Positions 22,127 to 28,310 of a stretch of DNA of 64,000 nt are shown here, in pieces; within the stretch, counting starts at the first letter, position 1, and each line of letters opens with the position of its first letter. The DNA comes from a virus. The translations under genes and the position numbers were made by a program. A model generated the notes under the pieces. That model worked only from the letters and a program-made list of their open reading frames with translations, did no database searches and was not told where the DNA came from. The stretch lies in the IMG/VR virus record IMGVR_UViG_3300028416_000006. One strand, 5' to 3'.

Positions 22127-22177
22127 AATATTTCCTTGATTTTATTATTATATACTTTAACGCTAATTGCATTATAG

Positions 22178-22466
22178 TAGCAAGTTGATTCTGTTGCCAG
22201 GTCCAACTTGCAAAAACCCCTACGTGCTTAAAACTAAGCCGCTAATGCCATTTCTGGCGAATAATTGTCATTTGCAATTATAAAGTTTGTTCGCGGTAAC
22301 GGCGCTTACATCCCGGCAACTCCCTTTACCTATTAGCTACCCAGTCGAACCTATTTCAACCCCATCAAAAACACACTATGAACTACTAGTAACAATGTGT
22401 TTATGGTGGAGTTGTCCGGTACCGCCCCGGAGTCCTGAATCAGCGTTGAGTAAATTTCAACATTGC
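22178..22466 (-). ncRNA. ssrA: circularly permuted two-piece tmRNA, alphaproteobacterial type
   Basis: Acceptor piece ending CAACTCCACCA (3' end 22404) with GGCGGTA T-loop; coding piece starts GGGGTTGAAATAGGTTCGAC at 22363; G3:U pair; tag ANDNYSPEMALAA* at 22275-22234. Confidence 0.93.
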
Positions 22467-22489
22467 GTATTATTTATGATAACACAAAA

Positions 22490-22900
22490 TTAAGTTATGT
22501 CAACCGGTTTTGCGTTTATTTGTTGTTTTTTTCCAGAATAATCTCTAACTGCGGCTTTAATGGCATCTTCTGCCAATACGCTACAGTGTATCTTAACTGG
22601 TGGCAATGCAAGTTCTTCTACTATTGTTGTGTTTTTAATCTCTTGTGCTTGATCTAGTGTCATACCTTTAAGCATAGTTGTTACCATACTTGAACTAGCA
22701 ATTGCACTTCCACAACCGTATGTTTTGAATTTTGCATCTTCAATAATGCCATCTTCTGTTACTTTAATTTGTAAACGCATTACATCACCACATGCAGGTG
22801 CGCCTACCATTCCAGTTCCGATATTATCTTCCTTGGGGTCGAACTTACCTACATTTCTTGGATTATTGTAATGGTCTAGCACTTTTTCGCTATATGCCAT
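22490..22900 (-). CDS. iscU: Fe-S cluster scaffold IscU
   Basis: GAPACGD, KTYGCGSAIASSS, LPPVKIHCS. Confidence 0.95.
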   Translation of the reverse strand: MAYSEKVLDHYNNPRNVGKFDPKEDNIGTGMVGAPACGDVMRLQIKVTEDGIIEDAKFKTYGCGSAIASSSMVTTMLKGMTLDQAQEIKNTTIVEELALPPVKIHCSVLAEDAIKAAVRDYSGKKQQINAKPVDIT

Positions 22901-24363: not shown

Positions 24364-25105
24364 TATAGATTGGCATCTAGCAGAATTATGTATAGATGTA
24401 TCGAAGATAGTATACGAAGAAAAAACAGAAGTAGTTAAATTCCTAAAAGATAACAAAATAAAACATTCAAGTGTTAAATTCTTTGAAAAAGAAAACGCAC
24501 AAGGCTATGGTATTGTTATGCCTGACTATGTGATCGTTGCTTTTAGAGGTACTGAAGGCGCTCAAATGGGTGACTTATTAGCAGATATCAAGGCTTGGCC
24601 TGCAGGTGCAGATACAACAGGTACAGTACATTCTGGATTTAAACATGAATTAGATAAACTATATCCTGAAATTATTAAGTGGTTGGGTAAAAAACTAACT
24701 ACTAAAAAAATAGTAATTACTGGACATAGTTTGGGAGCTGCAATGGCAACTATATGTGCTACTAGATTTCACCAAGCAGGTGCAGATTTAGTTTTATATA
24801 CATATGGGTCACCAAAAGTAGGTGATAGAACATGGGGCGAACAGTTTAATGATATAGAGGCGTATAGATTTGTTAATAACAACGATATTGTTACTAGAGT
24901 TCCATTCTTTGGATATTACAAACATGTAGGGCAAATAGAGTATATTACATACGATGTGCATATCAAAACCAAAGTAACATGGTGGCAACGCTTTAAAGAC
25001 AGAATGAAAGGAACTGGTAAAGCAATTAGTAAGTTTCAGTTCTTTGATGGACTATATGACCACTTTGGAAATCAATATATTAAGAAAATTAAGACTCGTA
25101 AATAA
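24350..25105 (+). CDS. class 3 lipase
   Basis: VAFRGT, GHSLGAA, YTYGSPKVG, NNNDIVTRVP. Confidence 0.9.
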   Translation: MLKNNIDWHLAELCIDVSKIVYEEKTEVVKFLKDNKIKHSSVKFFEKENAQGYGIVMPDYVIVAFRGTEGAQMGDLLADIKAWPAGADTTGTVHSGFKHELDKLYPEIIKWLGKKLTTKKIVITGHSLGAAMATICATRFHQAGADLVLYTYGSPKVGDRTWGEQFNDIEAYRFVNNNDIVTRVPFFGYYKHVGQIEYITYDVHIKTKVTWWQRFKDRMKGTGKAISKFQFFDGLYDHFGNQYIKKIKTRK

Positions 25106-26066
25106 TTTGATTTGGATCTTTTCCGTGTACCCACGTACTATCTAATGCTTTAATAACACACTTTGACTTATATTTTTCAACTGTTAATGCTAGTTGTTCA
25201 TCACTTCCAACTAAATCTGATTTTATAATATCATAACAAGGCGTTTTATTTTTATCTATAGCAAGTATAATCATATGCTCTAATCCATTGTTACGCCAAT
25301 TGTATCCAATACGTGTATCTTCACCTTTTATAAACCCATCATAACGTATTACATCCCAAAAATTAAATCTGATGTTTTCCGGATCTGCTTCTAATACTTT
25401 TTGATTATCAGTCTCGACAATAGTTGTACCATTAACCACAACTGCGTGACCATCAAATACTGTACTATTGTTTTGTGCTAAATTTACAAACTGTTCGTCG
25501 TGTATATTCCAACCCTCGATATTATTACCTTCTTTATCCTTGTAACTTATTATACCTTTATGTACGATTACATTAACACGTAAGCCTCTGCTAATAGGTT
25601 GTACTGCGGCTGGATATTGTTTAAATGTTTTATAGTCTGCTACAGTGGGCGAACTTATTGGATAAATCATTATTAACCCAGGCCATACTGCATTTATTGT
25701 TTCTAGCTCAAGTCCCAAATCCAAGTCTTGTCTTAGCAAACTAACAAATAGATCTGCTTCTCGATCATCAATATGTTGCATTGCCATTTGACAAGAGAAG
25801 TTTTTTTCTCTTTCATCATATTTTTCGTCTATAATGTCTGTTAGAATATGTAGGAATCTTGTTAATCCCATACCAAACTTTTTACCATTTCGTCTTGGAA
25901 CAAAATCTTGCATTCCAAAGTCTACCCAAGGATTATATGCAATAGTAAGTATGCGTTTAAATATAGGTTCTTTTTGATAAGTTGTAAGAAGCTCTAGTTT
26001 CTCCTCCTGAGTACTAAAGGTCTGTAACTTTGTTATTAATTCTGATAATAGATGTACTTTGCTCAT
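25089..26066 (-). CDS. DNA ligase-like protein lacking catalytic residues
   Basis: T4-type ligase N-domain and degenerate motifs (QPISRGLR, FDGH, FWDVI); no OB domain. Confidence 0.6.
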   Translation of the reverse strand: MSKVHLLSELITKLQTFSTQEEKLELLTTYQKEPIFKRILTIAYNPWVDFGMQDFVPRRNGKKFGMGLTRFLHILTDIIDEKYDEREKNFSCQMAMQHIDDREADLFVSLLRQDLDLGLELETINAVWPGLIMIYPISSPTVADYKTFKQYPAAVQPISRGLRVNVIVHKGIISYKDKEGNNIEGWNIHDEQFVNLAQNNSTVFDGHAVVVNGTTIVETDNQKVLEADPENIRFNFWDVIRYDGFIKGEDTRIGYNWRNNGLEHMIILAIDKNKTPCYDIIKSDLVGSDEQLALTVEKYKSKCVIKALDSTWVHGKDPNQIIYES

Positions 26067-26094
26067 ACAACTATTTATCAAATTAAAACTAACG

Positions 26095-26126
26095 TAAATA
26101 AGGGCGCCTATTTGCCGCCCTTTTTC
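26095..26126. terminator. terminator closing the microprotein operon
   Basis: AGGGCG/CGCCCT stem flanked by A/T runs. Confidence 0.7.
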
Positions 26127-26170
26127 TTTTCTATTGGTTTTTTAAAGTAAGTGTGATTTGGATCTAACAT
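26108..26170 (-). CDS. putative 20 aa basic peptide MLDPNHTYFKKPIEKKKGGK
   Basis: TAATG-coupled to upstream ORF; stop lies inside terminator. Confidence 0.35.
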   Translation of the reverse strand: MLDPNHTYFKKPIEKKKGGK

Positions 26171-26304
26171 TAGTTAGTCTTGTACATATTATGTTTGAAC
26201 TCAGAGATCTCATTGGCTTTGTCGTGCATGCCCATTTCTCTAAGTTGTTTAATACTCATACAGTAACTTCTGTATTCCATTAGTTTCATAAATCGTTTAA
26301 ACAT
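26170..26304 (-). CDS. 44 aa microprotein
   Basis: Hand translation MFKRFMKLMEYRSYCMSIKQLREMGMHDKANEISEFKHNMYKTN; TAATG coupling. Confidence 0.6.
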   Translation of the reverse strand: MFKRFMKLMEYRSYCMSIKQLREMGMHDKANEISEFKHNMYKTN

Positions 26305-26489
26305 TAATAAGTCTTTCTATAAATTTTGTCGCCACGTGCAACTGATTTAATGTCGCCTCTGCATAATCCAATATCATTTAACTCAAAGTCGTTTAATTCT
26401 GACAAAGCCTTTTCTGTTGCTCTGCGGCTTTGCTTGTTTGCATAAGCACGTTTTACCCAACTTAGTTTATTTGTTATAGTATTAATCAT
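26304..26489 (-). CDS. DUF1127 (YjiS-like) small protein
   Basis: RRATEKALSELNDFELNDIGLCRGDI signature. Confidence 0.88.
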   Translation of the reverse strand: MINTITNKLSWVKRAYANKQSRRATEKALSELNDFELNDIGLCRGDIKSVARGDKIYRKTY

Positions 26490-26674
26490 TATCTACTCTC
26501 CAGCATTAGTTTTTTTGCTTCTTCTGTGTAGCCTTGTCTATGTAATTCAGCGGCTGCTCTTGCACGACCTGCCGATTCACCAAATGACCAAATAGCCATC
26601 ATTACTTTTAATGATGCTTGTTTAATTTTTTCACAAACACTACATGTTTGTTTGTATATTAATGTTGTTGTCAT
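26489..26674 (-). CDS. 61 aa microprotein
   Basis: Start MTTTLIY by ATGA overlap; GRARAAAELHRQGY motif. Confidence 0.65.
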   Translation of the reverse strand: MTTTLIYKQTCSVCEKIKQASLKVMMAIWSFGESAGRARAAAELHRQGYTEEAKKLMLESR

Positions 26675-26877
26675 TTTACTGCTACCTTGATATTGATATC
26701 TGCAAGACCCATCTTTGGTGCAGATCCTTTGTGTTCTAGCATATAGTTGTAGGCATATTGCCAATCAGAACCATATTCTGTTTTTGCATAAGTCATTAGG
26801 GTGTTATTGTAAGCCACACGACTTCTACGTGAGCCATTGAATAATCCCGACCATGCACTAAAAAAAGTGTTAGCCAT
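26671..26877 (-). CDS. 68 aa microprotein
   Basis: Start MANTFF after GGAG SD; YAKTEYGSDWQYAY motif. Confidence 0.7.
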   Translation of the reverse strand: MANTFFSAWSGLFNGSRRSRVAYNNTLMTYAKTEYGSDWQYAYNYMLEHKGSAPKMGLADINIKVAVK

Positions 26878-26894
26878 TTTATATTCTCCGTTAT

Positions 26895-27095
26895 ATGTGT
26901 GGATGTTTTTGGGAAAGCATCCGTTATTTGCCAGTCTCTCCTGGCCGCTACCACGATACCTCATAATGTATCGCTTGTAAGGCATGGGTTATGCCCTGGT
27001 CTTTCCCAGAGTCAGTTAGCGTGGCACTAACTGCCGCTCTTTTTTTCTGAGCCGAGGTCGCTCTATACTACGTTGTATATGTAAATAACAACACG
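26895..27095 (-). ncRNA. structured multi-hairpin RNA (5' leader or sRNA), family unrecognised
   Basis: GC-rich island with about 8 consecutive stem-loops and an 8-nt long-range complement. Confidence 0.65.
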
Positions 27096-27200
27096 ACATT
27101 GTATTGCTCTTATTACACTTTTATTTATCACGCATTCACGCAATAAACCGTACTTATTTATGCAAAGACGCTATGCACTATACACATACCGTCTTAAAAG

Positions 27201-28310
27201 TTATATTTTGGTTGTTGAGCTTTCGTATGTTTTGTTAAACTGATTATTAACACGAACGAATGTTGTACACTTGCTCAATTGTTTTAATTTCATTGCACCT
27301 GCGTATGTACAAGTACTACGCAACCCGCCTAGGATTGCTTGTATGGTGTGCTGTACTGCACCTCTGTATGGAACTAGTACTTCTCGTCCTTCGCTTGCAC
27401 GATAGTCTTTTAGTCCTCCAAAGTGTTTTGTATTTGCTGCATCACTACTCATTCCGTAAAAAGCCACAAACTGTTTTTGTTCAAGTAAAGGTTTTTCTGC
27501 TGTGAGCCATTCATTGGTTGCATACATCTTACTAATAACTTCGCCGCCGCCTTGATCATGTCCTGCAAGCATACCGCCTAGCATTACATAATCGGCACCA
27601 CCAGCAAATGCTTTAGCCACATCACCACTAGAGTTACAGCCCCCATCAGCAATAATATGTCCACCAAGTCCATGTGCCGCATCTGCACATTCAATGACTG
27701 CACTAAGTTGCGGATACCCGACTCCTGTTTGGATTCGTGTTGTACACACGCTTCCTGGTCCAATTCCGACTTTAACGATGTCTGCTCCATTTAAAATTAA
27801 CTCCTCTGTCATCTCTCCGGTTACTACATTACCTGCTATAATTACTAAATTAGGAAATGCATTACGAACTTTTTTAACATGTTGTGCAAAGTGATCACTG
27901 TAACCATTTGCAATATCCATACATACATATTTTAGTTTATTGCTTACTTTATTATACACGGCTTCTAACTTATCAAAGTCTATTGTTCCTGTACCAATGC
28001 TCATAGCAATGTTTTGTGTTCTTCTATTATCTGGATAATCATTGTTAAAAAAATCTACAAGTTCTTCCACTGAATATGTTTTTACTAAACATGTAAATAT
28101 ATTTTGTTGTGCAAGTTCATCTGCCATTTCAAATGTTCCAACACCATCCATGTTAGCAGCCATAATAGGAATACCTTCGTACTCATGTCTGCTGTTTCTA
28201 AATTTAAACTTGCGTTCAAGTCTTACTTGTTTGCGTGAACTTAATGTACTACGCTTTGGACGAATTAAAACGTCACTGTAGTCTAATTTTATGTCTTGAT
28301 CAATTCTCAT
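27201..28310 (-). CDS. guaC: GMP reductase
   Basis: [37 protein letters not shown]. Confidence 0.95.

Follow-up and report, generated by a model that had tools for sequence, protein, structure and literature searches.

A conserved, structured leader RNA upstream of microprotein operons in uncultured marine phages

The 64,000-nt stretch of viral DNA analysed here (IMG/VR record IMGVR_UViG_3300028416_000006, hereafter the window) contains, upstream of an operon of five small open reading frames (ORFs), a non-coding leader belonging to a real, conserved family of structured RNAs of uncultured marine phages that is present in no catalogue we searched. According to the ORF list, every gene of this neighbourhood lies on the minus strand, and a 323-nt gap separates a GMP-reductase-like gene from the five overlapping ORFs, which encode 68, 61, 61, 44 and 20 amino acids (aa) and are joined by ATGA/TAATG overlaps as a first-pass annotation of the sequence had described (Table 1). 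The window is phage DNA, with 12 tRNA genes, a transfer-messenger RNA (tmRNA), ribonucleotide reductase, proteases and a tail-fibre-like gene, and IMG/VR viral contigs carry near-identical sequence. The same annotation had placed a GC-rich island of eight stem-loops at 26901-27092 in front of the operon and proposed a self-contained phage RNA-plus-microprotein module. Reading of the minus strand recovers all eight hairpins at these positions, the G+C content of 0.44-0.49 contrasts with ~0.30-0.35 in the flanks, and the leader folds better than 200 of 200 dinucleotide shuffles (z = -4.0). The components of such a module are all seen, namely a promoter motif, a structured non-coding leader, the microprotein operon and a terminator-like hairpin followed by a U-rich run, which closes the operon although a simple consensus terminator scan did not flag it.

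Among loci found by protein similarity alone, 17 of 19 with an ORF1 homologue have the leader upstream of this gene and on its strand, as have about 50 of 80 retained for ORF2; relatives of ORF2 are encoded at 190 viral loci. The most conserved 20-mer of the 3′ module of the leader matches at least 120 IMG/VR contigs exactly, and these matches together with the earlier protein-found loci yielded 124 distinct leader sequences. The leader is conserved upstream of the homologous operons collected in this way, and its H0, P1, P2 and P3 stems covary. A search of 185,579 cellular genomes with the same 20-mer returned 72 matches, where we estimate that ~70 would be expected by chance, and a covariance model recognised four of the 72 as true leaders, all on contigs of marine metagenome-assembled genomes (MAGs). 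A Red Sea Neomarinimicrobiota MAG has leaders of equal score on two contigs (L238:4961-5110 and L200:885-1034), of which one is 335 kb long; a leader is also borne by one contig each of a Flavobacteriales and a Legionellales MAG. These could be mis-binned phage contigs or prophages. The leader fits no known Rfam family, in agreement with the first-pass annotation, which could not assign it to any: Rfam 15 gave no match in the leader at the gathering threshold, only two chance-level matches to unrelated families at E <= 10 over 26000-27400, and none at E <= 1 in six diverse homologous loci. Likewise, neither the DNA of the locus (blastn) nor the ORF1 and ORF2 proteins (tblastn) had a match among 50,697 GenBank phage records.

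The leader family is modular, with the number of hairpins and the inserted modules varying between leaders. Of 120 leaders, 112 have a late-promoter-like motif of the form [T/G]ATAAATA or TAAATAA (TATAAATA-type) at a distance of 50-204 nt on the 5′ side of the 3′ module, compared with 7% of random 230-nt segments of the same loci, and a structured element directly follows the promoter in every leader version, being either the H0 pseudoknot or a longer plain hairpin. In H0, the loop of a 4-bp hairpin reaches across an A-rich linker to pair with a UGAG-like tetramer. Across the 24 distinct copies of H0 88% of cells are paired, and double-sided changes number 19 against 5.5 ± 1.9 in shuffles (0 of 500 as high), with compensatory loop/tail variants CUCA:UGAG, UUCA:UGAA, UCCA:UGGA, AUCA:UGAU and CACC:GGUG; the copy in the window keeps just three pseudoknot pairs. 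The hairpin inserted behind H0 is absent from type B and C leaders. The complementarity of GCCACG in its loop to CGUGGU and both copies of AGCGGC, pointed out earlier, are present in the sequence, and in one relative (L029) this loop is changed to UGCCAAG with CGUGGU left unchanged.

Each leader carries between one and about five unit hairpins with the hexaloop [G/A/C]-A-N-A-G-A, usually after GACR or GGCA. This loop with its closing bases, G-NANAGA-C, stays almost unchanged although the 4-bp stems beneath it take 38 different forms; 51 of 55 are closed by G-C. Hexamers of the form [ACG]ANAGA sit on a perfect 4-bp stem in 59% of cases in leaders, compared with 3.8% across all fetched loci, and P1 and P4 are the sole G-NANAGA-C hairpins within the 64 kb of the window. 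The P1 stem covaries (pair 8-20 is GC in 23, UA in 18 and AU in 16), while its loop reads G-A-N-A-G-A throughout. An insert composed of P2, the junction UUACAAGYGAU and P3 is optional among leaders, and the type B equivalent of the P3 stem covaries at six of seven pairs. When P1, P2 and P3 were evaluated jointly on 59 distinct leaders, 94% of cells were paired and double-sided changes reached 182 against 52 ± 7 in shuffles (0 of 500 as high). A pairing between the P2 and P1 loops was considered and rejected, as it reaches 5 bp in some GAUAGA variants alone and its covariation is not consistent.

The 3′ module reads GGUAUUGCU-NN-CCUYAAGCA, near-invariantly, in most leaders and GGAUGCUUUCCCAAAAACAUCC (type A) in the lineage of the window, with further forms based on UUGCU/AGCA, AUGCU/AGCAU and GUGA/UCAC. 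Whatever its form, the module is a hairpin capped by a C-rich loop in every leader, and it is conserved by sequence, stem included, rather than by covariation; two loop positions beside CC vary freely (UU, UC, CC, GU, CU, AU, AA or GA). The tetramer CCUC is present in the loops of both H0 and P5. In 119 leaders a Shine-Dalgarno (SD)-like motif follows 9-22 nt past the 3′ module, across an AU-rich spacer, and in a few loci (L319, L269 and L283) an extra hairpin lies between the leader and the first ORF. No terminator on the sense strand of the leader was detected by the terminator scan. In the ensembles predicted for 109 leaders the SD has no conserved partner; its nucleotides pair with the P5 loop and with the tail at mean probabilities of 0.10 and 0.22, respectively, and it is neither clearly sequestered nor clearly exposed.

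Table 1 Features of the leader, the microprotein operon and the adjoining gene in the window, in the direction of transcription.
Feature	Coordinates	Strand	Basis or remark
GMP-reductase-like gene	27201-28310	minus	Pfam IMPDH, E = 1e-71
T4-type late-promoter-like motif GATAAATA, then AAAGTG	27122-27129	minus	sequence
Leader	~27115 to 26878	minus	intergenic, 5′ leader of the microprotein operon
5′-proximal hairpin GUUGU-UAUUUACAUAU-ACAAC	27072-27092	minus	sequence; peculiar to the window's close relatives
H0 H-type pseudoknot	27037-27063	minus	covariation in 24 distinct copies
H0 stem GAGC/GCUC	27060-27063 and 27049-27052	minus	hairpin GAGC-GACCUCG-GCUC at 27049-27063
H0 pseudoknot pairs, loop CUC with GAG	27054-27056 with 27037-27039	minus	spans A-rich linker 27040-27048
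Inserted hairpin CAGUUAG-UGCCACG-CUAACUG	27013-27033	minus	peculiar to the window's close relatives
P1 unit hairpin CUGG-GAAAGA-CCAG	26996-27009	minus	conserved hexaloop
P2 hairpin GGCAU-AACCC-AUGCC	26981-26995	minus	99% paired, double-sided changes at 4 of 5 pairs
Junction UUACAAG, continuing into GCGAU	26974-26980	minus	nearly invariant in alignments A3 and A6
P3 hairpin CGAUAC-AUUAUGAG-GUAUCG	26954-26973	minus	compensatory AU-to-GC changes in L005, L031 and L036
P4 unit hairpin GCCAG-GAGAGA-CUGGC	26930-26945	minus	second conserved hexaloop
P5 3′ module GGAUG-C-UUU[CCCA]AAA-A-CAUCC	26901-26922	minus	minimum-free-energy fold
Shine-Dalgarno GGAG of ORF1	26886-26889	minus	8 nt before ATG 26877 in all copies
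ORF1, 68 aa, family F1 (AKTEYG.DW.YAY)	26671-26877	minus	no Pfam family
ORF2, 61 aa, family F3 (FGESAGRARAAAEL.RQGY..EAK.LML, N-terminal CxxC)	26489-26674	minus	viral relatives
ORF3, 61 aa, DUF1127	26304-26489	minus	Pfam PF06568
ORF4, 44 aa, family F4 (MFKRF.KAMEYRSYCM.I..LR)	26170-26304	minus	recurs in many operons
ORF5, 20 aa (MLDPNHTYFKKPIEKKKGGK)	26108-26170	minus	peptide conserved elsewhere
Terminator-like hairpin AAGGGCG-loop-CGCCCUU (GGGCG/CGCCC core) and U-rich run	~26100-26122	minus	sequence reading

The proteins encoded behind the leader belong to a small set of families, all of them basic (median pI 9.3-9.7). F1 is encoded directly behind the leader in about nine of ten loci and is represented by 100 distinct proteins, in which E34, Y35 and W39 of the family motif are invariant. 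Its relatives fall into 193 clusters of unnamed metagenomic proteins at 50% identity; a word-indexed homologue search with ORF1 returned eight matches, all unnamed, and a search of the ESM Atlas gave no usable match. The clusters of ten distant F1 relatives are 'hypothetical' or unnamed bar one member, a 1219-aa bird protein that looks like a clustering artefact. The AlphaFold model of ORF1 consists of a single long helix (residues 19-48, mean pLDDT 67). Downstream of F1, the order and number of genes vary, with DUF1127, F3, F4, F5 (motif YLASS.DL.ELERRQR), short hydrophobic peptides and the 20-aa peptide as constituents. The predicted DUF1127 gene of the operon is confirmed, as ORF3 matches PF06568 over residues 14-47 above the Pfam cut-off (E = 2.1e-8, 34.2 bits against 23.3), and Pfam and PHROGs yielded nothing significant for ORF1, ORF2, ORF4 or ORF5. 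For ORF2 the ESM Atlas gave only viral 'hypothetical protein' clusters, and the helix pattern previously seen in both ORF2 and ORF4 holds across families F3 and F4. The peptide encoded by ORF5 recurs at the operon end in the loci of other lineages, in five variants of MLDPDH(T/S)Y.KPK...K, so that ORF5 is probably translated. Its stop codon lies inside the loop of the terminator-like hairpin.

Six metatranscriptome runs contain the stretch, and in three of the four compared for contig depth the leader and operon contigs are 5-15 times deeper than those of neighbouring genes (X16, 32 versus 2.5-6.7; X19, 120 versus 7-15; X20, 69-155 versus 4-15, with the leader-core depth including contigs of related phages). 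The depth in the fourth run, X5, is flat, and its signal may be DNA carry-over. Depths of Logan contigs cannot rank the parts of a transcript, and the contigs show no strand, ends or separate leader species. Exact contigs from two studies span 26532-27096/27095, stopping just 5′ of the first hairpin, and one of those ending at 27095/27096 runs on into adapter sequence; this gives a weak hint of an RNA 5′ end at this point, ~20 nt downstream of the start expected from the T4-type late-promoter-like motif. RNA contigs are unbroken from the leader into ORF1 and ORF2, which as contigs cannot prove a single transcript, and the leader and ORF3 lie on the same strand, connected by overlapping ORFs with no terminator found between them.

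The comparisons above establish the existence, conservation and structure of the leader RNA, from which we infer its mechanism. The RNA heads an operon of basic microproteins that is probably transcribed late, and its repeated identical hexaloops and invariant 3′ hairpin may be protein-binding sites. The likeliest binder would be one of the operon's own basic microproteins, either F1, whose gene is nearly always the next one, or the DUF1127 protein, and binding could set the translation, stability or processing of the operon mRNA, making the RNA an autoregulated leader or part of a ribonucleoprotein. We favour this reading of the leader as a putative autoregulatory, protein-binding platform tentatively, at somewhat less than an even chance. 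Retention of one loop on drifting stems, in hairpins of varying number, argues for a protein-binding array rather than a metabolite aptamer, and the invariant 3′ hairpin, the missing expression platform, the linkage to F1 and the basic gene products point in the same direction. The DUF1127 protein CcaF1 binds RNA and acts on small RNAs (sRNAs) co-transcribed with its own gene (PMC8034643). However, several points weigh against such a platform. No leader module correlates with the presence of a given microprotein, except F1, and the latter appears to have no recognisable RNA-binding fold, its model being one long helix of moderate confidence. The 10-20 nt between the end of the 3′ hairpin and the SD make plain steric blocking less than obvious. 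Another way in which DUF1127 proteins can work is through protein-protein contacts, for example with PhoR (PMC12501420), so that RNA binding cannot be assumed, and the strong conservation of the 3′ hairpin, stem included, fits a base-pairing seed equally well. In a further-reaching and, in our view, unlikely scenario, F1, DUF1127 and other basic microproteins of the operon would load onto the hexaloop array and the invariant 3′ hairpin to build an abundant, late ribonucleoprotein of the phage with the leader as its RNA component, and this particle, or the processed RNA, would reprogramme host RNA metabolism or translation in marine alphaproteobacteria.

The main rival to a protein-binding leader is a processed sRNA similar to cuckoo/CcsR; the RNP and processed-sRNA options of the first-pass annotation come close to these two readings. 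The leader would be cut in the AU-rich stretch between the 3′ hairpin and the SD and act in trans, either by pairing of its C-rich loops (CCUC/CCCA), as anti-SD seeds, with mRNAs of the host or the phage, or by titrating a host RNA-binding protein as a decoy; taken as a whole, we judge this proposal to be unlikely, albeit a serious contender. A structured RNA that shares its transcription unit with DUF1127-type microproteins is already known from alphaproteobacterial CIN1 loci, where cuckoo/CcsR/NfeR RNAs (Rfam ar14), likewise structured and with C-rich anti-SD loops, derive from the 5′ or 3′ untranslated region (UTR) of the DUF1127 gene (ccaF1), whose protein binds RNA and promotes RNA maturation (PMC8034643). 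The alphaproteobacterial type of the tmRNA in the window points to a host of that same class, the 3′ hairpin is conserved in sequence without covarying, as a seed would be, CCUC occurs in both the H0 and P5 loops, and the extra hairpin of L319, L269 and L283 parts the leader from the first ORF. However, the leader resembles neither ar14 in sequence or structure nor any other Rfam family: two CCUCCUCCC-loop hairpins would be expected, whereas the phage loops are GACCUCG (H0) and CCCA or UUCCUCA (P5) and so carry CCUC or CCCA instead. The H0 loop is moreover consumed by its own pseudoknot, the free variation of the positions beside CC is unusual in a seed, and the RNA contigs continue from the leader into ORF1 and ORF2, with no separate leader-sized species demonstrable from them. 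Unlike the cuckoo RNAs, the phage RNA also has purine-hexaloop arrays and a pseudoknot, usually adjoins F1 rather than DUF1127, and is phage-borne behind a putative late promoter. A passive role, in which the leader protects the 5′ end of an abundant late mRNA from RNases or acts as a ribosome standby site or enhancer with no specific partner, would account for the structure (pseudoknot or long hairpin) right after the promoter in every version, the high RNA depth over the operon and the indifferent state of the SD in predicted ensembles. Yet stabilising hairpins need no conserved loops, while near-invariance is seen in the hexaloop with its G-C closing pair, in the junction and in the 21-nt 3′ module of leaders whose stems changed often, which indicates specific recognition and makes a passive element improbable.

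More improbable still is a metabolite or ion riboswitch, operating through the pairing of UGGGAAAG with CUUUCCCA or through competition of an AGCGAU:AUUGCU pairing with P5. As the first-pass annotation had noted, UGGGAAAG (27008-27001) and CUUUCCCA (26917-26910) are exactly complementary over 8 nt; it had regarded the second segment as the loop of the last hairpin. This assignment does not hold: the last hairpin folds as GGAUG-C-UUU[CCCA]AAA-A-CAUCC in the minimum-free-energy structure, and most of CUUUCCCA is therefore in the stem, which is retained in L010 despite changed letters. The TGGGAAAG/CTTTCCCA switch pairing fares no better than chance among 59 distinct leaders, where 71.9% of cells are paired compared with 71.3 ± 0.8 after column shuffling (138 of 500 as high); the outer pairs are unpaired in 47 and 34 of the 59, and the middle pair fails in 28. 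Swapping of the 3′ loop between leaders gives a best complementary run of 4.89 ± 0.12, against 4.79 for native combinations, and the P1 loop stays GAAAGA or GAUAGA while the 3′-loop positions beside CC vary. Given this absence of covariation and the negative partner-swap test, the 8-nt pairing is at most restricted to the lineage of the window. In the alternative pairing AGCGAU:AUUGCU the junction would bind the 5′ strand of P5, in competition with the 3′ hairpin; this pairing is compatible with 90% of cells, compared with 20-67% in slid controls, but displays no covariation beyond chance. The 5′ UTR position, the conserved unpaired nucleotides beside covarying stems and the compact minimal form of L071 and L039 (a pseudoknot, one hairpin and the 3′ hairpin) would suit a riboswitch, and repeated identical loops are also a trait of the guanidine-II riboswitch. 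On the other hand, whole modules (P2/junction/P3 and H0) are optional and hairpins number from one to about five, leaving no single aptamer architecture, and the downstream genes are regulatory-type microproteins instead of enzymes or transporters that would suggest a ligand. Neither a conserved terminator nor a conserved SD-sequestering helix was found, which is evidence against a classical riboswitch, and the riboswitch-like switch envisaged earlier is not borne out by this modular layout. Finally, the stretch could simply be coding, with ORF1 starting at ATG 26985 to give a 104-aa protein. This frame is open in the window, but indels of +4 nt (L005) and -1 nt (L009) interrupt the extension in close relatives whose ORF1 is 94-95% identical, the same ATG meets TGA after four codons in type B leaders, the stem substitutions are compensatory and GGAG precedes ATG 26877 by 8 nt in all copies. 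The leader thus stands as non-coding, as originally described, and we attach practically no weight to the coding alternative.

The favoured protein-binding leader has partial parallels in known systems. Variable hairpin number and drifting stems beneath a constant loop near a ribosome-binding site are also encountered in CsrB/RsmZ-type sponges and phage coat/repressor operators. CsrA sites are GGA and the phage leader loop is NANAGA closed by G-C; CsrA-type sites were rejected because the GGA lies outside the loop. The boxB elements of lambda and P22 are short G-C-closed stems with purine loops (GAAAA, GAAGA and GACAA) to which arginine-rich N peptides bind. The leader loops GAAAGA, GACAGA and GAGAGA, with basic small proteins encoded nearby, are reminiscent of these, a likeness that is offered as a lead only. 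Unlike boxB, however, the leader has hexaloops instead of pentaloops, a first loop base that is not always G and arrays in place of single sites, and it shows no boxA and no sign of antitermination. The T4 gene 32 leader, in which a 5′ pseudoknot nucleates autogenous repression of translation, shares the 5′-proximal H-type pseudoknot, the T4-type phage and a product that may bind its own mRNA, but its pseudoknot precedes unstructured A/U-rich RNA, whereas that of the phage leader precedes hairpins and is replaced by a plain hairpin in many leaders. The preQ1-I riboswitch is likewise a small hairpin with an A-rich tail pairing back into the loop as an H-type pseudoknot. In contrast to preQ1-I, H0 has no Rfam match, lies up to ~170 nt from the SD and is absent from many leaders; its pseudoknot strand runs straight into the stem, and therefore there is no second loop for a ligand-contacting C. 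Further candidates were discarded, including Hfq ARN triplets, ribosome standby through loops that mimic the SD (to which the most frequent loops are poorly matched), pairing of UAUUGC at long range with the DWQY codons (which are not conserved) and tRNA-anticodon-loop mimicry by the 7-nt P5 loop (positions 33 and 37 misfit). A DUF1127-type gene is also controlled through its mRNA leader in S. meliloti, where attenuation of duf1127_1 needs a translated upstream ORF (uORF) and premature termination (bioRxiv 10.1101/2025.01.31.635925), but the phage leader has neither a conserved uORF nor a terminator.

Marine phages have so far yielded few structured RNA families, and the present leader, which is abundant, covarying and deeply represented in three metatranscriptome runs, would be ready for proposal to Rfam as a new family. 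The microprotein families linked to it have almost no known biology: F1, F3, F4 and F5 are unnamed, and the understanding of DUF1127, as a regulator that binds RNA or PhoR, has only begun. The leader provides an easily synthesised handle on what these microproteins bind and on why phages infecting bacteria of the oligotrophic ocean express them so strongly at a late stage of infection. Should the late-phage ribonucleoprotein scenario be true, it would represent a phage-borne, structurally unrelated counterpart of CcaF1-CcsR and a new class of structured phage RNA.

Several additional features of the locus were observed. The tmRNA of the window (22143-22524, minus strand) is a two-piece, permuted molecule of alphaproteobacterial type (Rfam 117-121 bits, ARAGORN tag ANDNYSPEMALAA), and a related locus (L261) also has a two-piece tmRNA of this type, ~6 kb from its leader. 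Directly 3′ of the operon lies a ligase-like gene (25089-26081, minus strand) with a weak match to PHROG 114, a family of phage ATP-dependent DNA ligases (E = 3e-20), and no match to a Pfam ligase. In related operons, a C-terminal N-L-(K/R)-G-W-V tail occurs on 34 of 59 DUF1127, 13 of 35 F5 and six of 100 F1 proteins (e.g. at L011:3180-3440, L044, L016 and L004), while the five ORFs of the window have no such tail; microproteins that are otherwise unrelated have it in common, which suggests a shared signal for docking or degradation. At the flanks of the DUF1127 gene, contigs of several RNA and DNA runs break at 26281/26282 and 26531/26532. At this position DUF1127 and F5 genes are exchanged, gained or relocated among relatives, and 26282-26531 of the window seems to be a place where strains shuffle genes especially often.

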